Shown here: positions 2,975 through 63,723 of the stretch, piece by piece
Layout: every line of letters starts with the position of its first letter
Position numbering within the stretch: position 1 is the first letter of the stretch
NCBI GenBank assembly: GCA_045837725.1
Contig: JBEWZL010000011.1
Location: 248,001 to 312,000 of the forward strand
DNA from: Vermamoeba vermiformis
Taxonomy: Eukaryota
Reading direction: 5' to 3'
DNA length: 64,000 bases
Notes under the pieces: generated by a model
What the model was told of the DNA's origin: nothing
The model's input: the letters and a program-made list of their open reading frames with translations, nothing else
Database searches by the model: none
Made by a program: the position numbers and the translations under genes

Positions 2975-5900
2975 TCAATTTTGACGACTTAAAAACGCGA
3001 TCCATTTACAAATAGTCTCATCAGTCACCTCTGGGAAATTATACCCTCGTTGTTGCATCAAATTCACTGAATTCGTGCAATCGTAGTCGCTGTTGCGTGT
3101 GGGGAATACGTTTCGGCCTTTGAAGTATTCTTCCCCGAGCAAGTAGATGGCATTAGATTGCTCTATTATCGCATAATTAGACAGTTTTATGAAATAGCGA
3201 GTAAAAATTTGATTTTCTTGCGTAGATCCGACGGAAAAAAATTTTGTCGTAACTTACCTAATTTGGGCAAGATCTGAGTCTTCCAATCATTAAATGACAA
3301 CTTCTCAATATTTAGCTTGGCTTGCTCATCGAGCATATCAACGAGATGATCGAATTTCACTCGGTTGGGATTATACAAGTTGAAAATCTTGCCTAGATCT
3401 GACCGACCAACAAAAATTAGAAATTTCGTTGAAAAGGGTTACGACTTACTTTGTTCGTATTCCTCACTTAAGTCGCAAATAAATCGTGCAATAAAATCAA
3501 CTGGATTCATTTCCAAGTTTGATTGCGTGTTGTACGGGCTATTTTTGGATTGCATTATGCCCATCAACATTCGCGAATCAAAATCCTCTGTCAAAAGCAT
3601 TAGATCAAGATGATATAGTACTATTGTATAGTAGGTACCTAGGTGTGCATATCCGTTAATTGTGGAGCTCGAAATCATGCCTGGTCTGGCTACAATGGCT
3701 TTCAAACCGGACCGGATCGCGGACATGACAATTCTTTCCGCGACGTATTTAGTGGCGCTAGTAGTATAATTAGTTAATAATAAGACTTAATATTATGATT
3801 TACTTACTTGTATCCACCAACTTCCTCAAAATACTCGTTGTTGAATTTGTCTTCGTAGATCAGCTCGATCTCCTTTCGATAATCATAGGACCAGCATACG
3901 CTTGTAGTAGATACATATATAAGCAGCTTATCCTTCATATTCAATGCGAAATCGACGATCTGCTTCGTTCCAATCACGTTGGCTTTTTTCAGTGAAGCGT
4001 AAGGAAGGACTGAATTGACGTAAGCAGCCGCGTGGTAAATAATATCGATCGATTTGCATAAAGAATCGAATTCTTCTTTTTCTAAGCCGAAGTTTTCTTT
4101 GGATAAGTCACCAATGACCTGTAAATAGAAAATGATGTTCGTTTTAGATCCGGTACAAAATGGTGAAAGGAAGACTTACGGGCTTAACAATATCGTCATA
4201 TTCACTGATCCATTCCAATTCCGCGAATTTAAATCGATTTTTGATCACGGTCAAGCCAGATCTGTCTTCGCGAAGTGCAGAAGGTCGGATCAGGCAATAA
4301 ATACTGTCGATTGTATTTCCATTTCGGGTTAATAGCTCGTATAGCATTTGCGTGCCTAAGAAGCCAGTAACACCAGTTAATAGGACCTTTGACCGATTTG
4401 TATCGATTTTCATTTCGCGTTGCGGATCCACTTTGATTTCGTCTAGAATTTTGAGCTCATTTCTTATATCGAATCCACTGCCAATATTCTTCGACTTCAG
4501 TTGGACTAGATTAGACAGGGCATTCATATTGGTTTCCTAGTAAAAACAAATATTCATTAATTGGGATCCGCTTAACTTTGATCTGGCAGTGTACTTACTT
4601 CGCCGAGCAAGACATTAAGCGGCATATCAATAGCATAGTCTTTCTTCAATAGGTTTCTGATTTTAATAGCGCTCAATGAGTCTACTCCGAGATTGACGAG
4701 ACTCACTATTCAACGAATTAATTAATTTTCGAAAATCGTTAATAAATCATTAAGATAAATGTACTAATATGGCTGAAATATTACTATGATATTTAGTGTA
4801 TTATTAAAGAGTATAAGGATCGTACGGTTGAGCGAATTTGAAGCGGTCTTGTGATTGCCTTACCTTCTTCCAAGTCAGTAACCAGCTTATCGCTGTACCC
4901 GAGACTTTGCAAAATTTCTTTGAATTTGTTCTTGAAGTTGTCGTCGTGCAACGGATTCTTCGGACTTTCACCAAGATCTACATAAGCCTTGGCAATTTCG
5001 ACGTTGAACTCTTTAACGATATGGTGTCTGCAATATTATTTAATAAAATAGCTATTCAAAAAAAGGATAATATTTCCATATTAGGGAATAAAATAATAAT
5101 GTACCTGATCACTTTGCGATCGTTGTCCAAGAAAGCAAGAGGTGTTAGTATTAGGCCAAAGGGCACCTCATGTGACCTCAATCGTTCACTACGGGCAATA
5201 CGAATGATTTCACTATGAATTAAGGCGCGAGTGTCCGGATGCGAAACCAGATCTGACCACTCTGATTCCATGTTTTTACCGAACTGTTTTTCAGCCCATT
5301 GCAATAGCGTCTTTTTCATAGGTAATATAATAGCGAGCTATAATAAGAGATTAGAACTATTCACTGATGTTTTGTAAGACAGGTCTGATCCGGATCTTAC
5401 CAAGTATGACTGCAACATATCGCCATGAATAAATATCTGTTCGATAAATGGGCTTCTCATATAAAGGTTTTCTAAGCGAGCAGGTCTAAGTAGACGAGTT
5501 AATACAAGCTTGTACGAGTAATACTAACGGATCGGACGTACTCTATGTATTCTCCTTGAGCAAGTTTAAAAATAGCTTTCTTTCTATCGATAATTTTAAT
5601 CGATCGTTGCGCTGGATTTAACTCGACTATATCACCAGTGTGGTACCAGCCGTCATCCGTAAATACTTCCTCGCTGTACAATTAACCGTTAATACATAAA
5701 TAATTAGAAGCAATTAGATCCTTACGTTCGTTTTTTGTCGCCAAAATAACCGCCAGACTAGAAGAATAATAGCATTTAATTTCTGAGAATTTTTGAGGTT
5801 AATTATAAAACGTACGATGTCTGGCTTCTTAACGACGAGTTCTCCTCTGGGAAATGGCTTATCGTTCGAGGTATATTCTTCCCAGTCTTCTAGTCGATAT

Positions 5901-7972
5901 TCTGCGGCAAAATTTGAGTCATTCGTACTGGTTACAAAAACGTTATAAACGGATCTTACCTAACGACCGATCCAAAATGCCGTCTGATGCAATGGCACCC
6001 ACTTCTCTAGCTCCGTATGAATTATAAATAGATGCCATATTGCCGTAACATTTACGCAAAAATTTGAGCACTTCGTCGCTCGTTGCGGCACCGCCTGTTA
6101 CGATGATTTTTATGCGATCTCCTAACACTTGCGAGAAATCTTGCAAAGCTTTTTCTTCAGCTCCCAGCGGCTATTATGCGTTGTTAGTAATATGCTATGA
6201 GTGTTATGACTTACTGTTTCACCGTTCTCAATGTACGTCTGAATCGCGTGTTTGTACTCGGAATAAATTTTGTTATAGAACACAGGTGATGCTGAAATAC
6301 TACTAGGGCGTGCTATAAGAATATCTTCAAATACTAGATCGACAGACTAGAGAAAGTCATTAGCAATCGTCAAAGTAAGCAAAATTCAAAAAAAAATTAA
6401 CGAACGGATGTGGCCTTAAAGTTCAAAAGGATGCTTACGCCTGAATAAATAGCTATTCTGAAACCACAAATGAGTGCTTTCAAATCATTTTTTCTGTCGC
6501 TGTTGGCCCAAGAGACCGTCAAACTAACTCCGCCCAAAGTAAATGACTTTGCGATCCAAGTGCGAGCCCAGGCTTCTGTAATTACAACGCCTTTTGGTAC
6601 TCCCGTACTACCACTCGTATCTAAGTATAATAATGATAATTAACGATTGTTACTTATTAAGGAAATTTCGGAACTACTACTTACAAAATAACGTTAAAAC
6701 ATCTTCTGGTTTCGTTACAACGAATAACGACGAGTTATTTTTCTTGCCCTACAATTAATTATTAATTTAAAATCCGATTATTTCCTTATTTGGAAGAGTC
6801 ATCAATGTAACGCACCATTTTTTCGATGTCTTCCCAATCGTAAATCTTGATTCGATCGCCGATGAGGTCTTTATACTTCTCCAATACTATTGTCTTATTA
6901 ATCGAGGCAGGGTTAGGCATGACGACCAAGTGTTTCACTGTTGGTGCTTGTTGCGATGCGCGTAATGCTTTTTCAATTACATCGTCGTCACAGACAAATA
7001 CTTTCATCTTCGTGGAGTTCATAATATTAATCAAGCCCTCTTCGTCTATAAAATATTAATATTAATATCTTATTTATCAAATATAATCCTGTTGAATGGG
7101 ACCAACACGAACATCACTTTTTGAGCGTTAGATCCAGAAACATTATATTACATTTTTATAAATGAAATAATAGAATATACTTATACGTACCTATATTATA
7201 TGGAATAACAGGCCCGACAAACGAGTTGACGTAACAAGAAAAATCAGCGACGTACCACTCGACGCTGTTCTTCGCGCAGATTCCAATAAAGTCACGTGGC
7301 TCGGCTATTTTACGCAATCCAAAACCAAAATTTTTAATTTTTTTGAATACGTCTTTGTAAGTAAGCCAAGTAAATTCGCGGGCCAAAACGCCATCCGTTC
7401 CACGAGCTCTGTAACCAAGACAAGGTCTGTTTGATATTAAAATATAGTTCTATATGATATGTAGTATTCGTATACGCCATGGTTTGAGATAAAGCGGTAT
7501 TTGAAACAGATCTTACCGTGATCCCCAATATTCGAACGCATTTCTTTAAATTAACCGTTAGTTGAATACAGACGTGAAGAAATAAATAATTACCTCACTA
7601 TTTGCATAAATGAAGGAGCATCTTTCTTAATTAATGCCTCTGTTTCGTCTTGATGATATTTTTCAATAACGAGTTTATGCTGATGCTTTTCTTTTTTGAC
7701 GCATTTCGCGCATAAAAAAAAATCTAAGCACTCTATATGGTAAATAAAATAATTAACGCGTGATCTTGAGAAAGGGGAAGTTGACAGTTGGAAAAAGTCT
7801 AGAAAATAAAAATTTAAATTAGATAATTACCAAAGCATTTATGACGCTCATCACCGGCAAATAGACCTCTAGCGCATTTGACGCAATGGTTGTAGACGAC
7901 ATATTTATTCGCTGTGAACAAATTTCGTTAAATCTGAATCCGATCGTTTAACAAGTCACACTTACATGCCAT
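2975..7972 (-). CDS. Carboxylic acid reductase-like NRPS-like enzyme: ZZ zinc finger + adenylation (acyl-CoA synthetase-like) + phosphopantetheine carrier + SDR reductase; multi-exon
   Basis: A-domain motifs [24 protein letters not shown] and [17 protein letters not shown]. Carrier motif LGVDSLSA (~4670-4700). Reductase motifs [19 protein letters not shown] and GGYxATK. N-terminal CVKC..C..C..CAKC..HQH. TGA stop at 2975-2977. Confidence 0.88.
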
Positions 7973-8493
7973 TCGCTTCCTGCGAATAAATTATATAAAA
8001 TATATGTACAACACGTAAGTTAGGTTTTGTTGCCCTCTTCTTTGAAGGGTCAAGCATTTAAAGTTCAAACCGAAATTTTACCGTTGGACTTTAGGACTTG
8101 AGGAAACACGTGGACCGTACGGTAGCGACCAATCGGATACAGCTTTTCATATCTCAAATAATAATATCGAAGTCTTTCCAAGCACGGCAAACATGATGTT
8201 TTTGTGGAAAAATAGCGCCCGAAAAAACGGTGCAATGGTTCCCTTTTTGGTGGTTGGAGCTTTGATGCCATCACCTTAAATATGTTTACTTTATACAAAA
8301 CCAAACGAAAGTTCCATAAGAGGAGATGTGCTTTATTTATAGGTCCTGTTCAAAGAAAATCACGTGCCTCGTTAGTTAACGACAAACAGAAACCGTTTTT
8401 CTAATACCGTTCCTTATATAACAATTTATTGCCTTGCCACCACATATCTAAAATTTTAATACAGATAGAGAAGCTTCGTCGAAAAAAAAACAA

Positions 8494-9275
8494 ATGAAGC
8501 AGATCAGCGTTTGCCTTAGCCTGCTCACCGTTGCTTATTTTGTAGGACCCGCTATTTCATTTCCCAAAGTGCAACAGGAATTCACCGCCGACTGCGATTA
8601 TTCTTTCAACGACGACGGAACCTACTGGAATGCATCTGGCAAAATGTATTCACTGCAAAACCAAAATTTGCTCCGACAAGATTATTCTAACGAACGAGGA
8701 GAAAAAGTTCAATTTTTTCAAATGTCCAGAAGCATGGTACGTATTACATAATAATAATTTGTTTTGATTTTCGAAAATTCGATCCGGTACAAATTAAGCA
8801 ATCCCGAGGTTTTCGTAGTTAGTATATATAATATGTAATAACCTATTATAACAAATGTTCTAGTTGCCACAAACTGATTTTTTACTCGATAGGCAGATTT
8901 TTATTTGGTAACGTACTCAGCTAAACCGACTTGCACCCGTAACACCATGTACTACCCTGGCTTTCCATGGTTATTTGAAGACACTGAAGCAGCGAAATAT
9001 GTCGGTAAGTGATTAATGATTAAAAATAAAGCGTGTTACGGATTGAGTTTAACGGATTTGCTAAACTAGGCAAGGTTAAAAAAGGAAACCAAAATCTCGA
9101 TTTGTGGCAATGGTCTAATGTTGACAATCTAAAGAGCTGGTATATTGATGAAAAGAGCAATCTGGCACGCTATGAGCTTGAAAATGCGTGGGCATTCAGA
9201 AAAATCGGCTTCAAAAATATAATTAATAAGGTTAATAAGACGCAAGATTTTGCGATCCCGAAGATATGTTTTTAA
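8494..9275 (+). CDS. Secreted ependymin-related (LolA-fold-like) protein, paralog 1; 3 exons
   Basis: Signal peptide, FP..F.ADC start, G.MY....LLRQDY motif, central Cys and C-terminal DFAIPKIC, all typical of ependymin-related proteins. Confidence 0.65.
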
Positions 9276-9666
9276 TTAAACGGTGCAGAGCATCGAATCC
9301 GAAATAAATGAATAAAAAATTAGATTAAAGTATTATACAACCACCTATTTCATGCCACAATGTCTAAATTTAACGGTTCCTATTAGTAGAAATTATTAGT
9401 TTATTTTTGGGACATAATTGGAATAAGAGTACACGATCGCGTGACAAAAAATACTCTAATGTTACCTGTACGAGTATGCAGGCGAATAAATATTAAGGTA
9501 GTAAATATTTTAGTATTGTTGGTATCTTTCTGTGCGGATCGCGATTACAGGGAAAAAACCGTCGTTTTCGTTTTGTGGTGCTGATTATTATATTTTTGAA
9601 CGAAAGAGTAGTAGCAAAAATTGCACTACCAATAATTGGCAAGTGATTATCATATTTAGCCGAAGA

Positions 9667-10463
9667 ATGAAAGAGATCTTGGTTATCGTGGTTGTAGTCT
9701 TGCTTACCTGCGGTCAATTATCACTCGCTCAAATAGGAAGGTTCCCAAATGTACCAAGAGATTTTAAAGCCGATTGTTTTTACTACTTCAGCAACAACGC
9801 AAAGAGTTGGGGATCTGATGGCAAAGTGTGGTACATGGAGAGCAAAAATTTATTCCGCCAAGATTACGCTAATAAGCTAGGAGAGCGGGTTGAATTTTTA
9901 CAATTATCTTTTTACCGGGTAAGGCATTATTAGAATTAGTAATTGAATTTTCTTTCAAAAAAAAACTCGTTGGATCTAACCATTTCCGAATCTTTGCTAT
10001 CAATTATAACTCATTTTGAATAAGTTTCTACGACTTTGTACTAATTAGCGACCAGAGAGATTTTTATCTGATCACCAACTCAACAAATCCGACTTGCAGC
10101 CGTAATTTGCTTGATTATCCGGGTTCGCCATACATTTTTGAAGACAGCGATAAAGCGGAATATTTTGGTACGTATAAAAACATATACTTTAAAAAACGAA
10201 GGGCAACGAAACTGATCGGATCTGCTACGTTTGTAGGAAAGACCCAAAGAGGACAGAAGGTTCTAATCTGGTGGAGATATGCTACTGATAATGGCTATAA
10301 AAATTGGTATTTCGACGAAAATAATAATTTGGTGAGCTATGATGTTACGGACAAGTCGTGGGCATTCAAGTCAATGGAATTTAGCAACCTTGTCGCTAAC
10401 CAGCTCAATGTTACGCAAGATTTTATGGTTCCAAAGATATGCTCAAAAAATAGCGAAAAATAG
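9667..10463 (+). CDS. Secreted ependymin-related protein, paralog 2; 3 exons
   Basis: Clear paralog of 8494-9275 (RQDY, PTC.RN, YPG.P..FED, QDF..PKIC) with the same intron positions. Confidence 0.65.
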
Positions 10464-10548
10464 CATAATTAAATATATCCTTACCGCGTTGTACTGGATC
10501 CATTTTTTTCGTCGCAGATCTTGTTCGTTGTATTTTGAATTTTTATAA

Positions 10549-13230
10549 TCAGCTAATTGACAACTCTTTCATTTTTTGTAATATTATATCTTCCAATAGC
10601 TTGCAACTCCTTCCTTCGATCATTTGTAATAACTCTCGGCAATTATTTTGATCGATGAAGTGGCTTACCAAATTTAAGCATGTTTCTATAAGCCTTGAAT
10701 GGTCTATACTCGGATTAGACTCTTGAGATAGGCATAAGTAATTAGCGTTCAGTAAAATTGAAATGGCATCGTTTGGATCTGAAATGACGAAAGAGTTTGG
10801 TTTGTACAGGTATTCAACCAATACTTTCAGCGCTGAAGGAGAAATTCCACCTGAATTTTCGTCGGGGATATCTAATACTCCTATAGCGTAATCGTTTAGA
10901 CGGAAACAAAAAGATTTTGGATCGGATTCGTACCTTGAAAGGATTCTTTCAGCGAGCTTGTGAAGCATCGATAGAAAAAATCGTTTCGTAATGCCAATAC
11001 TAGTTTATGGCAGCCAATCTCTTCTTTGCCAACTTTCAACGTGCAGTCACTCGAAACGAACCTTAAAGAATGAAGTTTCGTTACGGCCATTGCAAAGTTT
11101 GAAATCTCTCCTGCTTTGGTCTCTACATAAGCAATACCCTTCTGCATTAATTTTTCGTCTTCAATAGCGTCGTACAATTCCTTCATGAAACTATTCTTCG
11201 ATTTTTTCAATACAGATCTTGCTTCTTTTGAAATTTGTTCTCTGTTTGCTGATATGTATTTTAAGCACGACGCTGTTAAGCTATAAAATTTCAGTTGTTT
11301 TGATAACTCGTATAATTCCATAACGTCGCTAAGTGTTCGGATCTCGCAGTCCAAGTAATGAACGTATTGCTGAAAGCTACTCAAAGCTGAATCTGATATG
11401 GTCTTATTGTCCTCTATACTCTTAATAACGCCATTATCGAATAGCCTCGGGCATATGAGCTGAACTAACGGCTTGTAAAATCCGCGTTGTCTTACTTTGA
11501 CCGAGAAGATTGACGTCTCGTGTAATATTGGCGCCACTGCTAAGTTGAAATCCTTGCTAATAGCATCATCTATTATTGTATTAATAATAAATAGGAAGAA
11601 AAAGTGCTTTCGTACCTGAAAACCCATGATGAATTAAGACTGGATCCGTGACCAGATCTACTTCCGTTAGATATCCCCAAGCAACAATCTCGCTCGTGTC
11701 TAATGTTTATTAGCATTCGTTAAAGAATATTGCGACGAATTACCTGTTAAAGCGAGCACGTGACTTTCACTGACAGAAACATCGACGAATTTGCCATTGA
11801 ACTTTATCTTATTGTCGTAGCTCTTAGTAGAACACCGAGAGGCATCATTTGCTCCATATACATAGATCTCGCCGTCCACTATATATATTATTAGCGTCTA
11901 TAGATTATACAAAAGTAGCTCCGTACTTGTTAAGACGAAAGTGTTGGACTCGAAGGCGATAATTTTCTTCGCGTCAAGTGTGTTCAATAATGGTATTTTG
12001 TGCGGACCGTTCCGTAGCGATGAATCTTCTAATATCAGCTGGTTATGGTCATTTTTTCCGATGCCGAAGTATTCGCCCTCTGATTACGAAATTAGGAAAA
12101 AATGATGTTCGATAAGACACGTACCAGATACGAATATTGCGTGACTATGACCAACGTATAACTTGCTAATATGTTTTTGCGTGTCGTGGAATAGATGTAC
12201 GGAGCGAGGTTCCGTTGTAATTGAATTTGGTTCGTTGTTCAAAAACTGGCCGAGGTTCGCACCCCACGAATAAAGCTCGCCCTTATCTACAGAACATTAT
12301 ATACATATTCATAATAAAATTGGGTAATAATTACCTGAAATGATAAATGAAGCAGTTACTGCAGCTATTTTATCGATACGGAGTGATGGTGGAAGCCTTA
12401 TGAGGGTTGGTGTTTTGAAGCTAAAAATTGGCTCAGGATGCAACTGATTGTTCTGATTTTGACCCCATCCATAGAGCTTGCCATCATCTATAATAGTGTT
12501 GGTCTTAATAGACTACGAGCGTTATACTTACGCAACAAGACTATCGTAAAGTACGCGCCAGCGATGATTTTTTTGACAGGAGATAAATTGTTAAAAAATG
12601 ATAGTTCCGTGGGCAAATATCTATTTTCGGTATCTCCGAGTCCTAATTGTCCTAAACTATTGTCGCCCCATACGTAAAGCTTGCGGTCACCTGCAGCGCG
12701 TGTTCAAAATTAATGAAGATTACGTTGCTAATAGTATGAAAAATCATACTTGCTAAAGCAACACAGTGGCTGTGGCCAACGCATATTTTTTCAATTCTTC
12801 GTTGTGCTGACGCGAAGAACGGAACTATAGTCGGAGAAAGCGCATCTACCGCGTTTCCAAGTCCCAACTGGCCAACAGAATTTTTTCCCCACGAGAAAAG
12901 GTACCCATTAGCTATATTTTAAAGAATAAGTATTATTTTAATTATTGATATTTTTCTAATTGAATAAAAATTATTATTTGACTTTCAGTTTGCTCCGCCG
13001 GATCCTTTAACATACTGATCACTAGTGATAACGTAAATATTTATAATTAACCTTACTGGTAAAAGCTAGGGAAAAGAAAGATCCAGCAGCCACATGGATA
13101 AGCCGCTCACAATTTCTGAAGCTTGAAAGAAGGAAGTTAGGACTCGATTGACTTAAAGCAACACAAATGAAAGTACCCTAGTTTCATCAGGCTGTGGTGT
13201 TACTATTTGACGGGTGCTCGAAATGAAACC
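10549..13230 (-). CDS. RCC1-repeat and BTB/POZ domain protein; multi-exon, start not resolved
   Basis: RCC1 blades (LFSWGKNSVGQLGLG, LYVWGDNSLGQLGLG, CVGHSHCVAL). BTB motif SDCTLKVGKEEIGCHKLVLALRNDFFYRCF. Confidence 0.8.
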
Positions 13231-13393
13231 GCCTCGTTAAGAGCAGTGAGCCGAGATGACAACTAGCTAGAACAATATACTGCTACGATGAGAAACCCAA
13301 TCCGATTGCTACTCCGAAAACACGTAAGTGCAACCAAAGTTATTTGGTGCGGAAGCGGTGAGGTCCAATCTGAGCGAATTTTCGAATCAACAA

Positions 13394-38115: not shown

Positions 38116-40297
<2,182 letters not shown>

Positions 40298-48316: not shown

Positions 48317-48340
48317 TACGAGCAATAAATAACATTATCG

Positions 48341-52831: not shown

Positions 52832-55800
52832 ATGTCGTCAAACACAAACGGAACTCCATCCTACCATCGTAGGAAGTTAGGCTCGCTTGAAGATCTCGGC
52901 GAAGTAATGAGTCTAATGAACCTTCGGGAAGTGCAGTTTCCCAACAACGTTCACGAAAGAGACTCTTTATTTGTGAGCCTTGGATTTTGGAAAGCACGCT
53001 ACGAAATAAATCGTACTGCACAGTGCGATTCAACTGTGCAAAATATCAGTGAAAATCTTTGTTCGTCACGTTCAATCCAAAAAATCCGTCACCAGTTACA
53101 CGCCGACGCTCGACAATATGGAAGAACAGACCATATTGTGCTGTGGAGTATCGATGAACAAGTTAGCACATTTGTGCTTGATGAAGCCGCAATGAAGTGC
53201 GTTTACGAATCCAATGCATCAGATCGAATCGCAATTCTCTCGTGCACAAATCAGTTCCTTTACAGACCAATCTTAATCGAAGCAAAAGGTACGTAGAATT
53301 TAACATAAGAATCAAAATAATCAAATCAAAAACATTGCTAACTCTTCTTCCAGTTCCGGTCACATCTTGTAATATTATTTCACGAGCAATTATACGCCAC
53401 CTACGGGCGACCTTAGAAGAGTGCAACCAGTCGGAGGTTTCACATGCCCAAGATCTGCGAATCGCGTTAGGTGGCGGAATTAAGGTAAATAATTAGACGA
53501 TTAATTAATTAAGTAGTGATATATTTTTTTATGTTACCTAAATATTAATATATATAATTTTATTGCTTAAATTATTATTTTCCAGATCAAGCAGATTTAG
53601 TACTTTTTGAGAAGAAATTCAGTAAAAATAATCACCAAATTTTCCTAGATAATTATCTTATCAATAAACCAACTCGTTTAAATTGATCGGCAATTTAAGT
53701 AAATCTATTTGCGCGGTAAAACCTACTATGCCGTTTTTGATGCACTCAATTAATGTACTAATCCTGAGCAGGATTTAATTGACCGCTGCAAGGAGTTGGA
53801 GTTGGAAGGACCCACCGACGAACAAGGCACATCAGTCCTGTTTTACGGATCACAAGGTAAAGACTATTATTATTAATGTAGTCGCTAATTCACGATGAAT
53901 AGGAGTTGGAAAGTCGCATTTAATTAATCAAGTGTTGAAGCGAGATCTTGCTCCACTGACTGATACCATCTACGGTCAAATTGTTACGTGGTACTGGCTT
54001 TCTTTTCAACAATTCCAAGAAGAAACTGTTCTGCAAGCAATAGATGAAGACGAACTGGATATCTATCATCCACATAGCAATTTCCAGGAGATAGGCCTTG
54101 ACGACCCGAGTTTGGACGACTTTTTCCTCTTTCCTGAAGGTAAGATTCATAGCACCATTTAATCTAGTGCTAACTTTGTTAGGATCTATTTTGTCGACAA
54201 CACACCTGAATGCCCGTGTGTACTATGGCCCGTTGTTTGCCATCACAATTGAATTCTTTTCAAAGCAAGAGGTTCAAACTGAATTTGATATTGCAAAGGT
54301 ATGTAGTGTTGTAATCACTTACTCAGTACTTATTTTTATACAAATAGCACTATCAGTCATGTAAGTCCAGACTTGCTGCTGACAAAGTTTTTGTGGCTCC
54401 ACGGGCTCTGAATATGATTGGAGTGAAGGCTCCTCCTGGCAAGTTGCCAAAAAGCTACCTGCATATTGACCCCTATTTCCAATGCAAGCTTGGCAAAACG
54501 ATCAAGTACACTTCACCGTACACAACTGTGGATGCAAGCTTGCGCTTCTTAAAGGCCAAATTGCTATCCTACGGCAAATCTGATCGTTATGTATGGGGTT
54601 TGATCAAGAGCTTGCACATTGAATTGCCCTCACGCATGTTAAGGGGTGGGGGTTGCCTTATAGACTCACCTGGCTTTGTTCACAACGAGTTTTGGCTTCA
54701 AAAACAAACAGAGTAAGTCAAAAAGCATACTTAAATATTTAATCAACAACAATTAGTGCGGCCATTGCCTCAGCTGCTTCAGTTGTCTATGTTTCACAAA
54801 CTGGAGACTTCCAAAACGAGCTTGCATTACTCCTGGACTCTCCCTTTGCACAGAACTATCTACCAAAGATAGGGAAAAATTACAAAGACAATGCCCTGCA
54901 AACAATGCCTGCACAATGGATTTTTGCGTTTCCGAGCGACAAATCACTTCAAAATAAGAATCGAGCCAGCTTGCTTAAGGCCATTGCTCAACACCTGCAA
55001 TCTGCAACGGACAAGCTCGAACAAAAATTTTTTGCAGAATACTCGGTGGACTTCAACGTACAACTTGATGAAGCAGAAGAAGGCTCGTTTGTGAGATCAC
55101 TTTTCCAATGTTATTTGGCTACCGACCACAAGTTTAACTTTGAAGTGCCTCAGCTAATCAATTTGAGTGTCAACCCAACAGTCAAAATCCAATTGCCTTT
55201 GAAATCAGGAATTGCCAAGATTATTCGTGCTGCCAACAATCTTGACTTGGCTCCAGAGATATACCAAGGCCCAATTGCACTTACACATGTGCACTTTCAC
55301 AGTGATCTGCTTCACAAGGATGAAAATGGAGTAGATTTATTCATGAATTCGCTCACACATGCGCTCCAAGGAAACCGTCAAGCAACTGTCAACAGGCTCA
55401 ATGAAATTCACCAACTATTCGCACACATTGACGAATGCTTATGTTATGTAAGTTATCTTGCAATTAATTCACTTGGCTAACAGAAATTTATCAGATGTCT
55501 GATATTTCAAAGCTGACTTCAAGTGCTGATGTGGAGACAAAGACCAAAGTCTTTAAGATGTCTCTTCAGGGAAAAAACTATATTGAAGTATTTTTGACTG
55601 ATCTTGAACAATGGCAAGCATCTCTAATGTTTGACATCCACTACTTGATACAAGACACTCTCAATGCATCAAGCAGAATGTGCACTTATGAATACTTAGC
55701 TTCAGTTGTAAGTATTTGCACATTTCAAATATATTTTATTACTTACACTTGTTAGATTGCATCATTGCCCAGAATATTCAAGTCAAGTGGCCCACGTGAA

Positions 55801-57599
55801 AAAGTATTGCAATTTATCAATTCAGCCTGTGTTGCTGGAGGTAATTTCCAGAAATATTCACTTTCAAACATGATACTTGCTCCAATGTGGAAGAGCGTCA
55901 ACAATATGTTGGAAGAGATTGGAAAAATGATCACTGCAGATGCTAATGAAGAAATCATCGTTATTGGATTCAACAATACTTCAATCATCAACGAAATCGA
56001 TGAGTTAGCCCAAAAAATCTTCCAGTCTGAGGATACAAATGAAACACTCGATAGAATTATTCGTCATGAAAAGAATAGATTCACAGTTGAAATGAAGGCA
56101 TCTGTTTTAATATTCAAAAAACTGCAACAAATCTTGGCACTGGAGAAAACACAGCTTCAAAAGAAGTTTTCCAGCATGTGGACAGCCCTTATCACACAAC
56201 GAGACAAAGAGCTTGCTGGCAAAAAGAGAGTCAATAATTTGCCGCTGAAAGTTGTTCGTGAAAACTATTTGAAAGAATTGTTGCCTGCATTTGTTGAAGA
56301 GTGCACACAACAGACAATCAAAACACTCAGTGAGCGAATTGCTTCCCTACTTGGCAAGATGGCAACAAAGGACTCTGTGGATCAACAGTACCTTGGAAAG
56401 CAAATGAATGCTTTTATGGAGGTCTTATCCACTCGTTACTCCGCACCAAGTCTAATTCAAAGTGGCTACGATGTTACGAAAATGAGACAATACTTTCAAG
56501 CTCTACACTTCTCCATATTAGACAACATTTTGGATGCAAATTTTTATTCACAGTAAGTTGTCGTGCACAAAAATATTTTTTTCTAACACTAGTAGGAAAT
56601 TGGAAAAGCTCCTCTTAACAGAATACTCACGATTGCAAATCTCCAACGCGTCCGAATTGCGTGCGACTGTAAAATCATTGGAATGGAATAAGCTACTTGA
56701 GGGACCGAAAGGGTCTTTTACCTCACGCTGGGGCTTTGAAGAGAAAAAGGCTGTGGTAAATCAACTAAAAGATCAAGCCACCAATATAAGCAGTCAAAGC
56801 ATTTATCTGCCTCTGGCAGCCGTGCCAGTAAGTTCTAATTTGACAAATAATAACGTACTAAAGTATCGCTAGGAAACGGTGCGATTACTACAGCAGAAGT
56901 TTCCGCTGGCTAACCTTGGAAAGGCTCGCAGTGAGGCCTCAATTGAAAATATGCTATTTAAGCAATTCCGACAGGTAATAAGAGAGCATCAATACTAAAT
57001 ATTCTGTACTAATCACCTTCCTACAGTTTGGCACCGCTCAGTTAGCGCTCAACTTCGTGAACAATGATTTAAATAGGACCATGGCTCTTCGCACTGCCTT
57101 CTCTATGGACAACGAACCTGACACAAGCGACCTTGATATTCGTCGTGCAATATTAATTCACCTTGACAACGAAGATCTCTCGGATAAACTGAAGGACGAA
57201 CATTTGTTCAGCCTTACCGAGAGAGTCAACGAGCAGTTAGACCTGGACGGATTCGTTGATGTCTTAAAGCCTAAAAACGTGCAACAATTCATTCAGGCAA
57301 TGAGTCTCGAGTCTACCTCTCGTACTTTGGCTTTGGAGGCTGTTCAGTCCCTTATTGCAGAACGAGATGCGCGCCGAGACAAAAAGAAGGCTGAAAAACA
57401 GAAAGAAGATGACGATATGACCGCGGACGAAGAGGTGGAAGTTCGTCCGCAGAAACCTGTCAAAAAGCGAAAAACAAAAAAGAAGACCCGAAAAGAGCCA
57501 CTAATCGTCGAAGAAGACATCGAGCCAACGCAGCAACCTAAGCAAAAACGAAAAAGAGAATCAAAGCCCGTTGCACCAAACAAAAAGGCCAAGAAGTAA
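52832..57599 (+). CDS. Large dynamin-superfamily (BDLP/SLIP-GC-like) GTPase with helical C-terminus and basic NLS-like tail; multi-exon
   Basis: G1 GSQG|VGKS is split by an intron (~53857-53902). G3 region LHIELPSRMLRGGGCLIDSPG. Long helical region, then a KKRKTKKK/KQKRKR tail. Linkage of the N-terminal exons is inferred. Confidence 0.65.
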
Positions 57600-57827
57600 C
57601 TTAGCGGCTATTCGATGTACTAACGGTATCACTGCAATACCAATTTAATTTTACTATTTTTGTTTTACTCACCATCATCATCATTTGTTATACTAAATAA
57701 ACATATCAGTTTCCTGCCACGGCCTTGTAGATCTTGGTTAGTTAGTTAGTTTTTATCAATTTGCGTGAATATTACATTAGGACCGATAAATATTTAAACA
57801 TATTATTATGATTATTAGTTTCGTTAT

Positions 57828-60036
57828 TTAAGCGAATGCTTTCTTCGTCAAAACGTTCAATTTTTCAAGCGCGATGAAAGTGATAATCGTGTGAGGACCT
57901 AAACGCAAGAAATAAGGTGTGAAGCCGCGCCATAGAGCCAAGACACCTTCGGTTCTATATTGGAAAATAATACGTCGTTAGTTTTCATTCGTGGGTTAAA
58001 AGTAAAAAAAGATCCAGATCTCGAAAAAAATCGAGCTAGATCTGCTCTTAATTAAATCGTGCATGCACGTTCGCTTCATCATATTATTATAATAGCTTCA
58101 TATAAAATGTCAGTAGTAAATCGAAGCGCTAATATTTCATAGTCAAGGAAAAAAATTTGGATGTGGATGTAGATCTTACCTGACGACTTTTTGCAAGCAG
58201 TCCAAAGTACCGCTATATTGAGGCTTGCCATCGATGACTTTCATATTCTGCAAACGAGTCTTTGAAATATCAATAGGAATTGAAACGGCCGTCGACACGA
58301 ATCCAGACACCAAACTAGCGGCAAAATGCAAAGGCATGCCTTCAGTGAAGTAGCCAGTCTTGACCAACATTTCTTTGGCTTGCGAGTAGACTCCTATAAT
58401 CATATATAATGAGTATTATCGTACTGACATTAATAAAAATAATATCTAATAAAAATAAAGGATCCACATCTAAAAGTACATCCGCTTCTCAACTTCAAAA
58501 TGAAAATAATATTCAATTACATATGATATATGAAGTATATATGCTTAATATTACTATTATAATAAGCATCGATAATTAGAAACTATAAAAAGGTAAAAAA
58601 TGTCATCTTAAAAAATTTGACGCGTGTCAAAGTCGATGCTGTACCCAAGTCACGTGTGACAGGTGTCACTTACCGAGTTGCGCAGCGTTCAAGACCATGG
58701 CACGCATGACAGTAGGCTTCCAACCACGCCACAAAGTGGTCACACCTTCTTCTTTGGTGATGCGTACAAGTGCGTCAAACGCGTTCTTGTAGCCACGGCG
58801 CTGTTCTACGGGCAATCTGAAGCACGAGATTAACGGCCAAATTATTTGCACGGCGATAATAAAATTGATAAAATTTATCGATAAAATCAAATTGGCGCTT
58901 GGTTAGTACTAATTCCAAACTTTTATAAATCTAAATAAATTTGCAGTAATATTTAATATGAGCATATGTGCGTTGATATGTATTATATAGTAATAATATT
59001 ATATAGTATTATAAAATAATAAAAGGCCTTACCTGCCATCAGCCATTTGTCTAATTAAAGCAACTTCAGCGGGAGTTCCGATCAAAGCACCAACACCACC
59101 TGAAGTCATACCAATAAGAAGCTATAAAATACATTAGTATGATCCTTATTAGTTACATTATAGGTATTAAAGGTCTTCGGATCCAGGAGCTGAAAAATAA
59201 GAAAAAATATTGGGATCTGGATCTCGTATTTTTAAATGCGATAATAATCCAAATATCGATTATGATAATGCAATTAATATGCTTGTGATAATTAATATAA
59301 TATGGCCGTACCTTAGTGAAGAAAGAGGTTTGAGATCCGTCCTTTGGAGCGGTTTTATCGGTAAGGTATTGATAGACACCCAAACGAGTGGTAGTGTATG
59401 TAGCTTGACGAAGAAGACCGGCAGAAAGGCTGGATTATATATGGTTAGTTATTGTGAACATTTTGAGGTCCGTGTAACAGCCAACAGATCCACTTCACGA
59501 ATAAAACGAAAAAATTATTGGGAATAAATAAAATACCCTAATATCATAGTTTGCACAGACAATGGCGTATTTGAACCAAGTATAATATTTAGGTATTATT
59601 AATCGATTTTTTCTCGTTAGAAAATTAATGAAAATTTTTATCGAAATTCATACCCGTTATAGCAGGCCATAATGCCTTCAGTTCTGGCAATATCAAATAA
59701 TGCGTGGAAACTAGTGGGGTATTTCTTAGCAGCACCGCTCTCGCCCAAAAGTTGCATACGTGTTTTAACCAAATCTGCGCGGGTAAAAAATTAGTAAAAA
59801 ATTAGAAGGCAATCTGAACATGCTAATCTATTCTATACATGATGTTTAATATATTTGTATACGTGATATTATTATTTAAAATTTCCGTAAAATTAGATTT
59901 CGTTTTTAAAGTATTCTGGCATTAAGTACGCACCCAAAGGTTGCACGAAGCAAGTAGCAATCATTCCCGATAGACCACCATTAACAAACTTAGTCCAGCT
60001 TGGGGGATTCTTCGCGGCGGGTTTCTTTTCGGCCAT
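57828..60036 (-). CDS. Mitochondrial 2-oxoglutarate/malate carrier (SLC25A11-like)
   Basis: GGLSGMIATCFVQP.DLVKTRMQ, RQATYTTTRLG, ADGRLPVEQRRGYKNAFDAL, RAMVLNAAQL, PIDISKTRLQNM and PYFLRLGPHT. Confidence 0.93.
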
Positions 60037-60318
60037 CTTGTTGTGATAATCAGATCTGGTATTTTAGAATATACCTAGCGAAGATTATTCGTGTCAATAT
60101 GGTTTATATGTCATAGGTATAGTATAGACTATAGTTGTTGTTACCTTTTCGTTGAATTGTTTAATTGACAAAGCGCAAAATAATTCGTTTGGGTTGCCGG
60201 TTGATTTTTGGACGAAATTTACAAAGGTAAGGCTTCGTTTGAATTACTTTTATTGGTTACACTTTTTAATAATACATGCTAATATAAACAATGATCTTTT
60301 AGATCAGATCCGCTGTAG

Positions 60319-63300
60319 TTATTTTTTGCTCGGAGATCTAACACTATTTTTTTGTTGATCTTCGTTATTTTCATCTCTTAATCTCGTTGGGGTCTTAATA
60401 GGCGTAGTACCATTACTAGGCGGTTTAATATTAAGCCCTGACGATACTTCAATGCTGTAGCGCTTAGCTTTGTTAGAACTGTTCGGCGCCGATCTGCCGC
60501 TCGGATTCGTTAGCTCGATAGGATACGGCGAGCCAGTCTTCTTAACGCGTTGTAATAATAATGGAGAGTTTGAACGCATCAAGATAATGTTGCCGTGACG
60601 AGCACGAGGAGTTCCAGGGCCGGATGTGGTGAGCTCGTCGTAACGGTACTCCTTTGACCGCACATTGATCGAGTTGGAGCTGCTAGTGAACCAAGAGTCC
60701 CTCTTGAGTGCCATAAACTGTCGCCTTCGCTTTCTATTAATATTAAGTAAAGTCAGATCTTTTGTAACGCAAAGAGTTGCATCCAGAAATTTTAGTTCTT
60801 ACCGGTCCAATAAGCGTTCATCGTCTACTAATTCGTTGATTTGACCGTCAGAGTTGAGGATATTATCCTGCGATACCTCTTGGCCATCATAGCTCAAATT
60901 TGAAGTTATGATCACTCCGTTCAAGTAGATCGTGTCGATCTCTTCTCCACTACGTGTAATCTCTTTGCCGTGGCCTTCTTTCTTGCCACGACGCCATTCT
61001 CCCTATTAATACAACACTATTAGCGTTTGTACACGATGAAAAATTTGACCGTCAAAAACACTGGAGAAATTTGCCACTCAAATTTTACGCCAGTACAAAT
61101 GAACGCGTGTAGCACGTAATAATTTCAATGCAGTATGAGTATACTACAATGTATTATAATTAATTGTAGTATACTCATTGCTCGGATAAAAGTTCGCGGA
61201 TCTATCGGTTTTCCAAGTACTTACAATGTACGACTTGACAGGCCCTCGCAAGTAGGTCATCATGCCAAAACCCATCTTCTCGCCCTTGTAGTATGTGCCT
61301 TCGAACACATCTCCGTTGCCGTAGATAACTTTAGCCGTACCTAAGCAAAAAAACATTGAATTAGGTCGGGATCGGATCCGGATCTGCTCCATTGTGTACG
61401 CGAGAGTAATAATTATATCAATATGATATTGCGAAGATATGTTGACCGTACCATGTAGTCTCCCTCGCTCCCAATAGCCTTGATATACAGTGCCACTGAA
61501 GAACTTGTAAATGCCAAACTTGTGCTTGCGTCCGTCTTCAAAATGACCGTAGTACACGTCTTTGTTGCTGTACAACATCACGCCCTGGCCTTGTCGCTTG
61601 CTCTCGTGCCATTCACCTTCGTATCTGTTGCCATTGGGCCAGATAAACGTGCCGTAACTGTCACGCACGCCGTCTTTAGAGAATATTACCTAATTTGGAA
61701 AGTCAGTTTCCACGGCTAACATAACGAGAAGTACTACGTACAGATTTCGTCCTATAAAGGATCTTCCACGAGACATTAAGCTTTGGTCGTGCTAAATTAT
61801 ACAATTCTTTCCACCGTTGTTTACTCATTGCCTCCCATAGTGCTTCATTGTCACCGAATAAAGTTCTCCATGATTTGCACACGCAACTCACCTACAACCA
61901 AATATCGTTAATAAAATTGATAAAATCTTCTATATCTTTCATTGAAACAATTTGCAAGCCAATAAAAAAAATTCGTATTGTAGCTTACTCTTGTGAGTGC
62001 TCGCGCGTCTAAATATGAAAATATCTTAATCGCTAATTTGTATTGCATAACGGTGAGCTTCTTATTAGCGCTCTTGAAGCTCAATCGAAATTCTCTGTTT
62101 TTCTTATCCGACTCTGCTTTTTTCGACATTGGATGCTTGACATTAGTATCACGATCAATTCCTCGGTTCAGAATCAATTGCCATGGGTCAATATGAATCG
62201 TGGCTAATATAAAAATTTCCGTTAAAATCAAACAAAAGAATACGAAGAAATAGATCCGGATCTGTATTTCAGTACGTAAGAATAATTATACGAAGTAATG
62301 GGTCTATATGATAGATTATATTAACATCAATATATAAGACGTACTTTCTTCGCTTTTAATCAACTCGTCATCTCGCCAGGTCTCTTTGAAAAATTGTCTA
62401 GTTTCAAATTTGAATGCAATTCCTGTGCCGTGCTTGGCATTTCTTCGAAATTCACCTTCATAGCTATTTTTATTTGCTTCTATTAATTTGCCTCGTCCAT
62501 GGTATTGACCTTCAACAAAGTCGCCTGACGAATTTAAAAAAAATTAGCCGTTACTAAATATTTTATTATTGTATCAAGATTATAATAAAAATAATTATTA
62601 TATTATGAATGATTATAATAAAATTGCAAAGAATTGATAATTGTGTACCAAATCTGACACGGATGTGCTGGTAAGATACACGGGAGATTTTTATCGTAGT
62701 ACAAAATTATTGTAATAATGCATATTTAAGCTAGAAATATTAAATATGCATTGGAAAAATATTATTACGTATTTGTTCAATTAAATTACCTTCATAGCGT
62801 TGGTTTTTGTAAGCGATCGTTTTTGTTCCCCTTCCAGTGATATATCCATTTCTAAAACTACCAATATATACATCTCCATTAGCCCACTTCATCGTTCCTC
62901 TGCCGTGCATTTCGTTGTTTTCGAAATCCCCTGCGAAAAGGTCGATTATTAATTAATTGAGTTAAAAAATATTATAAAAATGCCCTACCTTCATAAGATC
63001 GTCCATCAGGCCAAGTCTGAACGCCTTTTCCGTGTTTGTTATCATTTAAATATTGTCCTTCAAAAATGCTGCCGTTAGCGTACTCCAATCTGCCTTTTCC
63101 ATGCCGCCGTCCTTTTTCATATTGTCCACGGTAAATATTTCCATTGCTATAATTATATACACCTTCTCCGTGCTTTAATCCATCCAAAAAATCGCCTTGG
63201 TATGCGTCTCCATTATTGTAATGGTAAATGCCGTATCCAGATCGATTATTGTTCTCAAAATCGCCTTCATATCGCTCGCCATCAGCCCAAATAAATAGAC

Positions 63301-63457
63301 CTTTGCCGTGCCGCATTCCTGCTGCGAATTCTCCAATATATTTGTTGCCATTTGGGTAAGTTAGAATCCCGTAACCGTCCATCTGACCATCGAGCAGCGG
63401 CCCTTGATAAGTGGTCCCATTAGGCCACTTATATATCTTTGGGCCCGAATCACCCAT
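60319..63457 (-). CDS. MORN-repeat protein with an internal F-box
   Basis: Two blocks of MORN repeats (Y.G.F..G..HG.G) flank LAIKIFSYLDARALTR|VSCVCKSWR...LW. Confidence 0.85.
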
Positions 63458-63723
63458 TCGGGATCCGTGGTGTTATTTATCAGCGCTAAAGAATAAATTT
63501 TAGTTTGTGCGCGCCATTTAACGCAGCACAGCACCAAAAATTCCTACGTTTAAAATAATACTACCAATGCGCAAAATATGTTCAATGGTGACGTTTTTTT
63601 ATGATTGTAAGCGTAAAGTAAGGCTGTGGTAGTAGATCGAGCAACGAAATTACTTAAAAATTAAATTTTTATTAGCCTGTAAATTTTGTTCAATTCAGTA
63701 TTACACCTCCGTTATATATACAT

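Follow-up and report, generated by a model that had tools for sequence, protein, structure and literature searches.

A 64-kb stretch of a Vermamoeba vermiformis contig, hereafter the window, carries words with a GATC core in introns of unrelated genes on both strands, and raises the question of what these words are for and whether they act in RNA or in DNA. The original prediction described them as enriched in introns, and its twelve quoted strings are all present, exact and in place (nine in predicted introns, two in other non-coding DNA and one in a predicted exon). The analysis reported here covers this one window and relies on our own gene models.

GATC enrichment in introns, coding sequence and other DNA

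The enrichment of GATC-core words was reproduced. Under a trinucleotide Markov model 241 GATC sites are expected in the 64-kb window and 370 were counted, GATC being its most enriched tetramer. Likewise, RGATCY (143 against 48.1±7.0) and GGATC (186 against 82.4±10.5) were as frequent in none of 100 dinucleotide shuffles, and the observed-to-expected ratio of GATC, 1.53, compares with 0.46-1.16 in 23 contigs of at least 8 kb. GATT and GATA are below expectation. Flank preference around the core is weak (CR..YG, i.e. CRGATCYG) and informative to ±3, and the density of 5-6 sites per kb is even along the window. The copies announced just upstream of start codons near ~60052 and ~63460 are also found, as AGATCT and GGATCC (Table 1).

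Introns, exons and other DNA were assigned by our own ab initio gene finder, which, checked on one RNA-covered gene, recovered three of six RNA-supported introns exactly and missed one exon. In the 96 predicted introns (12,454 bp) GATC occurs 76 times against 36.1±5.6 in dinucleotide shuffles, a ratio of about 2, and GGATCT (14), AGATCC (14) and CGGATC (12) each stand against an expectation of about 1.2-1.6. The comparison by DNA class suggested by the original prediction also gave an excess in other non-coding DNA (126 against 64.4±7.3) and in predicted CDS (165 against 124.3±10.3); upon shuffling of synonymous codons the CDS figures are 167 against 124.4±8.3 (z 5.1). The intron enrichment claimed by the prediction therefore stands, but its emphasis on introns does not, since CDS and other non-coding DNA are enriched as well: the GATC excess is not an intron feature. 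The best explanation for the word being most conspicuous in introns is that these are AT-rich and unconstrained.

An element that acts in intron RNA, for instance by enhancing splicing or assisting branch-site use, would fit the twofold excess in introns, the one copy beside TACTAAT at 59141 and the copies that adjoin splice signals (e.g. GTAAGATC, at 5952 and at 58172). However, every asymmetric extension is as frequent in sense as in antisense orientation (on the intron sense strand, 27 GGATC and 29 GATCC, 27 AGATC and 29 GATCT), which bears out the predicted orientation independence and already contradicts such a reading. In addition, 52 of the 96 predicted introns contain no copy, the copies per intron look Poisson, as in random scatter, their positions within introns are spread, and copies in CDS and intergenic DNA share one lattice phase with them (see below). 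We regard an RNA element as extremely improbable, and place the signal at the DNA level, as had been predicted, because it is strand-symmetric, missing from more than half of the introns and found in CDS and other non-coding DNA.

A lattice of about 142 bp in anti-phase with TA-rich words

Pair distances between GATC sites show maxima, separated by troughs, at 140-160, 280-300, 420-440, 560-580 and 700-720 bp. The cosine score peaks at 144 bp with z 9.9, whereas none of 300 class-preserving placements exceeds 4.56, and the proposed comparison of spacing with the nucleosome repeat length is thus strongly positive, at about 142-144 bp. Scores by 16-kb quarter are 6.2, 8.1, 3.8 and 4.9, and those for CDS only, non-coding DNA only and RGATCY only are 6.5, 4.9 and 6.8. 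Global Rayleigh power of GATC is 24.4 at 142.30 bp; the lattice period is estimated at about 142.2 bp, and thirds of the window analysed separately yield 142.0 and 142.2 for GATC and for TA-rich words alike. The phase of GATC is 123 in CDS, 125 in introns and 122 in other DNA. In ten unrelated eukaryotic contigs of at least 15 kb no comparable peak near 142 bp was found, maximum power being 4-7 at scattered periods.

One register spans about 42 kb, many genes and both strands, a phase coherence that to our knowledge exceeds what barrier-set nucleosome arrays give. Both this range and a period shorter than the 147 bp of the canonical nucleosome core particle count against a nucleosomal reading. 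Enrichment and phasing are separable, because the stretch at 43.5-55.5 kb is as rich in GATC as elsewhere, yet without a lattice (Table 1).

Table 1. Domains and GATC-containing sites along the 64-kb window
Feature	Positions	Strand	Basis	Measurements
Lattice domain, GATC and TA-rich words at ~140-142 bp, anti-phase	1-12000		periodicity analysis	GATC n=72, period 140, z 6.8; TA clusters 141, z 6.4; GATC-TA cross term z -9.8
GATCCGGATC, inverted pair of GATC, predicted intron	5387-5396		sequence	
LINE-type retroelement region, RT ORF 14567-17893, free of GATC excess and of lattice	12001-18000	-	RVT_1, E 2.7e-32	3.2 GATC/kb, periodicity z 0.2 (count too small for significance alone)
Main lattice domain, many genes on both strands, register as in 1-12 kb	18001-43500		periodicity analysis	GATC n=161, period 142, z 8.0; TA clusters 141, z 9.2; cross term z -11.2; phase holds to about ±25 bp of one register
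GATC-rich stretch without detectable lattice	43501-55500		periodicity analysis	6.2 GATC/kb; best z 1.7 (GATC), 2.6 (TA); combined phasor power at most 2.4
CCGGATCTGGATCT, exact 6-bp tandem duplication of GGATCT, predicted intron of CLU gene	45070-45083		sequence	
Local lattice, drifting phase, local period ~143-147 bp	55501-64000		periodicity analysis	GATC z 3.9 at 147; TA z 5.4 at 141; cross term z -6.3 at 143; phase drift from 20 to 94
AGATCCAGATCT, predicted intron of mitochondrial-carrier gene	58010-58021		sequence	
GGATCTGGATCT, exact 6-bp tandem duplication	59213-59224		sequence	host intron with 4 GATC
AGATCT, ~15 nt 5' of start codon of minus-strand mitochondrial-carrier gene	60052-60057		sequence	
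GGATCGGATCCGGATCTG, densest cluster, predicted intron of MORN-repeat gene	61369-61386		sequence	3 GATC
AGATCCGGATCTG, predicted intron of MORN-repeat gene	62252-62264		sequence	
GGATCC, just 5' of start codon of minus-strand MORN-repeat gene (Pfam MORN)	63461-63466		sequence	

TA-rich words (e.g. TATA, ATAT) have the period of GATC in near anti-phase to it. In fact, the strongest component in the Fourier spectrum of A/T content (8-2000 bp) lies at 142.22 bp (power 19.4); overall A/T content swings by only about ±7%, and the lattice is carried mainly by TpA-containing words. When half-period zones were defined by TA clusters only, GATC density was 3.4 per kb close to the A/T lattice points and rose to 9.0 per kb in the zones farther off (64 against 169 sites in total; 29 against 82 in CDS, 10 against 40 in introns and 25 against 47 in other DNA). 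A/T peaks called by a published recipe have a spacing mode of 125-175 bp, and GATC sites lie about 70 bp from such peaks: relative to compositionally equal tetramers, its frequency is 1.5-fold at ±50-90 bp from a peak and 0.55-0.74-fold at the peak centre and at neighbouring peaks. None of the 136 tetramers is more polarised between half-periods than GATC (2.75:1); ATCC/GGAT and CAGA/TCTG, words of its own flanks, come next, and TAT-type ApT contexts are depleted in the GATC-rich zone. GATC is enriched in the window not on account of introns but because it recurs regularly, every 142 bases or so, between AT-rich peaks, as would be expected of a mark in inter-nucleosomal DNA.

A pattern of this kind may also arise passively, from differences in mutation and repair between cores and linkers of a regular, long-lived nucleosome array, possibly modulated by methylation, with GATC as a by-product without a role. 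The half-period contrast of at least twofold in CDS, introns and other DNA alike is what position-dependent mutation would give; the deficit of GATT and GATA beside the excess of GATC also fits, as does an intact, presumably young LINE ORF without excess (12 GATC against 12.2 expected), although with about 16 expected under enrichment this last count does not discriminate. Against such an origin, the synonymous-site excess would need a strong bias, and the mutagenic effects of 6mA are judged limited in the portion of PMC12695648 available. Moreover, because one 4-bp palindrome among 136 tetramers is singled out along with flank preferences of its own, recognition by an enzyme or protein looks likelier than a generic mutation spectrum, and we consider the passive origin unlikely.

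Short spacings and related motifs

Tandems with a period of 5-6 bp, which the original prediction regarded as frequent, do exist, with six neighbour distances of 5 bp and ten of 6 bp for about two expected each, but they are a small minority and not the typical form. Exact tandem duplications containing GATC number 4 of 95 (5-bp) and 4 of 40 (6-bp) in the window. GATC is the site of enzymes common in library preparation, and this, together with the few exact duplications of GGATCT and GGATC, could be taken to indicate ligation junctions, window-wise polishing, or decayed transposon or microsatellite copies. We find such an origin highly improbable: a tandem repeat of 142 bp is absent from the 64-kb window, whose dispersed repeats amount to one weak pair of 40 nt, GATC is present in just 8 of 135 short tandem duplications, GATCGATC junctions are absent and no neighbour distance of 4 occurs, a fraction of 0.98 of 31-mers sampled from an 8-kb stretch is found in a public run, possibly from the source sample, and the period is non-integer and common to TA words.

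The suggested analogy with cyanobacterial HIP1 is not supported. Like the word described here, HIP1 (GCGATCGC) is palindromic, has a GATC core and occurs more often than expected in coding as well as non-coding DNA; however, HIP1 is a sharply defined bacterial octamer and, as far as we know, not a phased element, whereas the word in the window is a 4-bp core with weak CR..YG flanks that carry little information, enriched 1.5- to 3-fold and phased on a nucleosome-scale lattice.

GATC or CRGATCYG could instead be bound, in linkers or transcribed DNA, by an abundant protein acting without methylation, such as a GATA-type zinc finger like WC-2, a Myb-like factor or a reader of TTNGATYTG. A palindrome with informative flanks is expected of a dimeric binder, pairs at 5, 6, 9 and 12 bp are in excess (29 against about 8.6), and fungal WC-2 binds GATC, according to the available part of PMC12638772. 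Furthermore, the plant intron-mediated-enhancement motif TTNGATYTG (Gallegos and Rose 2019), which contains GATCTG, is described in the accessible text (PMC6760150) as active from introns, 5'UTR and CDS, independently of splicing and additively with copy number, its reader being unknown; GATC in the window likewise occurs in introns, in CDS and just 5' of start codons. In contrast, the plant 9-mer is one-stranded and lies no farther than roughly 1 kb from the transcription start (PMC6760150, same part), whereas the window word is palindromic, phased at 142 bp and extends along whole genes and intergenic DNA, with no visible confinement to gene 5' ends as judged from the distribution of sites along the window. 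TTNGATYTG itself is found only 16 times against 8.9±3.0, with 10 of the 16 matching through the GATC core. Since the sites are also far denser than those of regulon type, and the anti-phase TA lattice is left unaccounted for by a binder alone, we hold this alternative to be doubtful.

GATC as a candidate linker word and methylation site

The original prediction knew of no described system of this kind, a statement that has to be revised, since nucleosome-scale A/T peaks and linker 6mA have been published (PMC12146615, PMC12019607, PMC12695648; these papers are drawn on here in excerpt). Consecutive A/T peaks (CAPs; Mondo et al. [quoted passage not shown] Linker 6mA lies at VATB motifs and MTA1c is essential in Rhizopus (PMC12019607), AMT1-bearing eukaryotes have periodic 6mA in linkers (PMC12695648), and in early-diverging fungi, ciliates and green algae MT-A70 complexes (AMT1/MTA1c) place symmetric ApT 6mA in linkers (PMC12019607, PMC12695648, PMC11258239). 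The A/T peaks of the window (called over ±25 bp) resemble CAPs in their nucleosome-like spacing through genes and intergenic DNA, and GATC lies at the published 6mA offset (PMC12146615). They differ in their carrier, mainly TpA words with a period of 142.2 bp, and in a register of about 42 kb, against arrays of two, three or more peaks in the excerpts of PMC12146615, whose main text does not contain the word GATC.

With the linker-6mA systems the window shares an ApT word that is its own complement, conforms to the fungal VATB motif and lies in the putative linkers, midway between A/T peaks, as well as the depletion of TAT-type ApT contexts, which in early-diverging fungi is reported for methylated genes (PMC12695648). 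In contrast, those systems methylate any accessible ApT, and the parts of the papers available report no enrichment of a single tetramer; in the window only GATC is enriched and phased, and the other VATB words (CATG, GATG/CATC, AATT, AATC, AATG) are neither enriched nor phased (0.90-0.97). A generic ApT methylase is consequently insufficient to account for the GATC specificity. Pfam scans of 16 and 131 ORFs revealed no methyltransferase gene among the ORFs of the window. For one protein, the closest named relatives belong to Mortierellomycetes, with an identity of about 25%.

The period of about 142-144 bp and the offset of about 70 bp from A/T peaks favour two candidates of the original prediction, a chromatin or nucleosome-positioning role and symmetric 6mA, and we hypothesize, with roughly even confidence, that GATC is a DNA-encoded linker word. 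By analogy with CAPs, the TpA-rich half of each period would correspond to nucleosome centres, and the other half, which holds nearly all of the GATC excess, to the linker. GATC would probably be a preferred symmetric ApT methylation site, and the putative writer may be an MT-A70 (AMT1/MTA1c)-type or another GATC-reading adenine methyltransferase. In the literature searched, neither a register of such range nor the specificity for GATC appears to have been described. In such a system, methylated linkers and A/T-centred cores would jointly fix the positions of nucleosomes.

Enrichment and sequence context of GATC

All 12 strings with which the original prediction had illustrated a GATC-core motif are present exactly where it placed them, and the proposed enrichment was confirmed: GGATC and RGATCY have 186 and 143 occurrences in the window vs 82.4±10.5 and 48.1±7.0 expected from dinucleotide shuffles, respectively. 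Under a trinucleotide Markov model the core itself ranks first among the enriched tetramers (370 vs 241 expected), and its density is 13-30 per 4 kb throughout the window, also toward the 3' end of the CLU gene, which is 5 kb long. The observed-to-expected ratio (O/E) of GATC is 1.53, vs 0.46-1.16 in 23 unrelated eukaryotic metagenome contigs of at least 8 kb, which derive from a metagenome scan with the proteasome ATPase (80 loci, none from a close relative) and serve as negative controls only; a metagenome scan with the CLU relative gave no match. GATC is the only ApT-containing tetramer to be enriched, as CATG (O/E 0.90), GATG/CATC (1.14), AATT, AATC/GATT (0.73 for GATT) and AATG/CATT all fall between 0.73 and 1.14 in non-coding DNA. 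Within the open reading frame (ORF) of a LINE-type retroelement 12 GATC were counted vs 12.2 expected, which fits a host-specific feature, the count being too small for proof.

The flanks of GATC are symmetric, and in non-coding DNA they carry information at positions -3 to -1 only (C.28-.33, R.65), roughly CRGATCYG. With information confined to these positions and no dominant octamer, the suggested analogy to HIP1, the GATC-core palindrome of cyanobacteria, does not extend to a sharply defined palindrome of at least 8 bp. Tandems with a 5-6-bp period, which had been described as frequent, do not represent the usual form of the word: exact short tandem duplications in the window number 95 for 5-bp and 40 for 6-bp units, are mostly AT-rich, and only four in each group contain GATC, for which reason tandem duplication was rejected as the main source of the excess. 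These duplications suggest a high rate of short slippage in this DNA. Distances of 5, 6, 9 and 12 bp between neighboring GATC are in excess (6, 10, 7 and 6 vs about 2 each); the tandems seem to reflect ordinary slippage in a word that is common anyway, together with some nested palindromes. Neither a 142-bp tandem repeat nor a relevant dispersed repeat was found in the window, and repeat and artefact explanations of the signal are effectively excluded.

A second enriched palindrome, CACGTG, occurs 20 times in the window (8.8±2.7 expected) and nine times in predicted introns (about 1 expected), frequently in GTGAC/GTCAC contexts.

Gene models and distribution among annotation classes

The 64-kb window is intron-rich, with 39% G+C, and GTAAG(T) is its top enriched pentamer and hexamer. 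Pfam matches on its open frames comprise an AMP-binding/NAD_binding_4 reductase, BTB, RCC1 and Kelch pieces, cytochrome b561, a protein kinase, a leucine-rich repeat (LRR) protein, an EF-hand protein, a proteasome AAA ATPase, CLU, a mitochondrial carrier, a MORN-repeat protein and a porin, in addition to the LINE-type reverse transcriptase. The named relatives of the LRR protein in a protein search belong to Mortierellomycetes, at about 25% identity, and a further protein search was dominated by CDC48-like proteins; the source of the DNA was taken to be a eukaryote that is probably fungal and may be early-diverging. Since the first residues of the LINE frame match a Kelch repeat, this frame continues from a neighboring Kelch exon. 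The proteasome ATPase and CLU genes are divergent and lie approximately 325 bp apart, and long open frames with no Pfam match are found between 43501 and 55500.

Coordinates of genes, open frames and CACGTG sites in the window
Feature	Position	Strand	Remarks
LINE-type reverse transcriptase ORF	14567-17893	minus	RVT_1, E 2.7e-32; weak zf-RVT match; 1108 uninterrupted codons
Proteasome ATPase	38116-40297	minus	Rpt3-like
CLU	40622 onward	plus	
Open frame	44460-45275		no Pfam match
Open frame	45846-46766	minus	no Pfam match
Open frame	51068-52453		no Pfam match
Open frame	52718-53293		no Pfam match
Open frame	54743-55477		no Pfam match
CACGTG	26521-26526		
CACGTG	31724-31729		
CACGTG	58651-58656		
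Intron	58640-58672		CACGTG in GTGAC/GTCAC context just inside 5' end

Three public RNA runs filed under the species name of the best-matching DNA run were aligned to positions 26001-46000. Nearly all of the reads are 95-99% alike to the window, cover the proteasome ATPase gene only and show six introns; at 38000-40300 the runs differ at many, mostly synonymous-looking, positions, and the species label seems to cover diverged strains or cryptic species. Because the RNA covered a single gene, we wrote an ab initio splice-aware gene finder, which predicted 130 exons and 96 introns of up to 400 bp (median 93.5 bp) in 19 gene spans, some of them merged, with a donor consensus of GTAAGT/GTACGT. It reproduced three of the six RNA-supported introns exactly and missed one exon, and the classes of coding sequence (CDS), intron and other DNA used below are therefore approximate. 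C occupies position +4 in 33 of the 111 predicted 5' splice sites, so that about 30% read GTACGT instead of GTAAGT, and these donors account for the over-representation of GTAC in introns (85 vs 34.6).

The motif had been described as a property of introns, but its excess reaches well beyond them. Relative to dinucleotide shuffles, GATC is in excess in predicted introns (76 vs 36.1±5.6, z 7.1), in other non-coding DNA (126 vs 64.4±7.3, z 8.4) and in predicted CDS (165 vs 124.3±10.3, z 3.9). In fact, synonymous codons shuffled within genes still yield fewer GATC than the CDS contains (124.4±8.3 vs 167 observed, z 5.1), and the excess thus extends to synonymous sites. The orientation independence that had been proposed is borne out on the sense strand of introns, where GGATC and GATCC (27 and 29), AGATC and GATCT (27 and 29), GGATCT and AGATCC (14 each) and CGGATC and GATCCG (12 and 10) are balanced. 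A splicing element was rejected on the basis of these strand-balanced counts, of the 52 among 96 predicted introns that have no GATC and of the scattered positions within introns, which show no preference; a requirement of one GATC per intron is ruled out by the per-intron distribution, which is that of random scatter by length. An explanation at the RNA level is effectively excluded, and "intron motifs" spotted by eye in AT-rich introns should be treated with caution, as they may be genome-wide chromatin words.

A 142-bp lattice of GATC and A/T-rich words

When spacing was compared with the nucleosome repeat length, as had been recommended, GATC proved to be periodic at about 142 bp, and this is our main result. 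The histogram of GATC pair distances has maxima at 140-160, 280-300, 420-440, 560-580 and 700-720 bp with troughs between them, and the cosine statistic reaches 9.9 at 144 bp, a value to be compared with the 4.56 that was the highest among 300 random placements preserving class. The periodicity is found in each 16-kb quarter (z 6.2, 8.1, 3.8 and 4.9) and in CDS sites (z 6.5), non-coding sites (4.9) and RGATCY (6.8) each taken alone, and ten control contigs of at least 15 kb gave noise only. TA-rich words share the period, with z values of 18.9 for ATAT and 17.0 for TATA, both inflated by clustering of hits; after de-clustering, the Rayleigh power of TA clusters is 24.7 at 142.34 bp, next to 24.4 at 142.30 bp for GATC. 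In the Fourier spectrum of A/T content, no component between 8 and 2000 bp is stronger than that at 142.22 bp (power 19.4), and the autocorrelation of A/T content has maxima near 144, 290-310 and 410-420 bp. By thirds of the window, GATC and TA words independently gave 142.0 and 142.2 bp, the last third being incoherent. The period is smaller than the canonical core particle.

Folding of the first 43 kb at 142.2 bp places GATC and the TA-rich words near anti-phase. GATC is the most polarized of 136 tetramers (184 vs 67 by half-period), followed by words of its own flanks, ATCC/GGAT (1.65) and CAGA/TCTG (1.59), and the opposite half-period is filled by TATA (0.34), ATAT (0.40), CATA, ATAG and GATA. 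Other words that conform to VATB, the fungal N6-methyladenine (6mA) motif, are unphased (0.90-0.97), and overall A/T content swings by only about ±7% along the lattice. In the lattice domains, 1-12 kb and 18-43.5 kb, half-periods were also set from TA clusters alone: 64 GATC fall near the A/T lattice points (3.4 per kb, O/E 1.16) vs 169 away from them (9.0 per kb, O/E 1.71), a division seen in CDS (29 vs 82), introns (10 vs 40) and other DNA (25 vs 47). The phase of GATC is alike in all classes (123 in CDS, 125 in introns and 122 in other DNA), independently of annotation. A passive, position-dependent mutational process could be proposed as the origin of such a pattern, and we regard this as unlikely. 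No phasing on the lattice was detected for intron midpoints (power 0.5), and hand calculation revealed no common phase for the start codons of six well-defined genes or for 16 CACGTG sites in lattice domains.

A/T peaks were also called with a published recipe (±25-bp window, prominence of at least 2 SD). Among the 413 peaks, once plateau duplicates less than 25 bp apart are set aside, the commonest spacings are 125-150 bp (45) and 150-175 bp (36), and the counts rise again at 275-325 bp. Compared with tetramers of equal composition, GATC is 1.5 times as frequent at ±50-90 bp from these peaks and 0.55-0.74 times as frequent at the peak center and at the neighboring peaks.

The register is kept over long distances. 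Pairs 12-24 kb apart still give a statistic of 11.8, whereas 150 null placements average 2.6 and do not exceed 6.9. Between 1.5 and 43.5 kb, 3-kb sliding windows show a combined phase that departs from a single register by no more than about ±25 bp, except at 12-18 kb, the LINE region, which shows no lattice. The register is the same on either side of the LINE, an identity that may be due to chance. From 43.5 to 55.5 kb the lattice is undetectable although GATC is equally dense (6.2 per kb), and from 55.5 to 64 kb it returns with a drifting phase. Within this one 64-kb window the long-range register is statistically solid.

Relation to known systems and proposed mechanism

In 1117 microeukaryote genomes, A/T peaks about 150 bp apart have been reported in consecutive arrays of 2, 3 or more (consecutive A/T peaks, CAPs), matching nucleosome centers in vitro and in vivo, and in Chlamydomonas 6mA lies in linkers, approximately 70 bp from the peaks (Mondo et al. 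2025, PMC12146615); the main text of that paper does not contain the string GATC. The A/T peaks of the window resemble CAPs in their nucleosome-size spacing and in forming consecutive arrays. Our reading is that a CAP-type lattice of nucleosome scale is encoded in the DNA of the window and that the excess of GATC noticed in introns is its linker-phase word, where the assignment of the GATC half-period to the linker is made by analogy with the CAP results.

Periodic 6mA in linkers is reported to be widespread in eukaryotes bearing AMT1, a methyltransferase complex of the MT-A70 type, and in early-diverging fungi TAT is depleted in methylated genes (PMC12695648). In Rhizopus microsporus the mark is symmetric and located in linkers, with a preference for VATB; it makes nucleosome positions sharper and depends on the MTA1c complex, which is essential (PMC12019607). 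The motif of Phycomyces is also VATB (PMC11258239). GATC resembles the targets of these systems, as it is a symmetric ApT that conforms to VATB on both strands and peaks at ±50-90 bp from A/T peaks, presumably on the linker side. Unlike in generic VATB methylation, GATC alone is both enriched and phased. As the most economical mechanism, we hypothesize that GATC would be the preferred symmetric ApT methylation site, and that methylatable GATC and A/T-centered cores would together fix nucleosome positions. Since only GATC behaves in this manner, a generic ApT methylase would be insufficient, and a GATC-specific enzyme or reader, or a corresponding preference of MTA1c, would be needed. Among the ORFs of the window scanned with Pfam, none has an MT-A70 or Dam domain. 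Fungal WC-2 is reported to bind GATC (PMC12638772), and a sequence-specific linker-binding protein that reads GATC is an alternative to methylation to which we assign a low probability.

Our literature search turned up no account of GATC being over-represented in introns, in fungi or in linkers, and in the 6mA literature GATC is mentioned mostly as the DpnI/DpnII site. In plants, TTNGATYTG, the motif of intron-mediated enhancement, boosts expression from introns, UTR and CDS (PMC6760150), and is restricted to transcribed DNA no more than about 1 kb from the transcription start. It occurs 16 times in the window vs 8.86±2.95 expected, a count reached in one of 100 shuffles and explained by the GATC core, which 10 of the 16 contain. 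The findings could be relevant to the way in which words with a GAT(C/T) core boost plant expression from within transcribed DNA.

A more far-reaching and tentative idea, which we consider possible but doubtful, is a quasi-crystalline nucleosome register written in the genome, in which one 142.2-bp frame would persist over some 300 periods with deviations of no more than about ±25 bp, in at least 12 genes on both strands and through exons, introns and spacers, with a TpA-rich center and a methylatable linker GATC per period. Such a register would be maintained by selection, like a reading frame, and be absent from a young retroelement and from some stretches. If true, GATC-cutting enzymes would produce a nucleosome-like ladder on naked DNA.

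DNA-encoded nucleosome arrays, in the form of A/T peaks, and adenine methylation of linkers are already known separately. It would be new for one palindromic tetramer to be enriched in the linker phase in particular, synonymous codon positions included, and this would mean that the substrate of an epigenetic mark is itself encoded in the genome. A register kept over tens of kilobases would also be new; it is difficult to square with arrays that start afresh at every promoter, and points either to selection on the register or to nucleosomes that are extremely dense and uniformly spaced.
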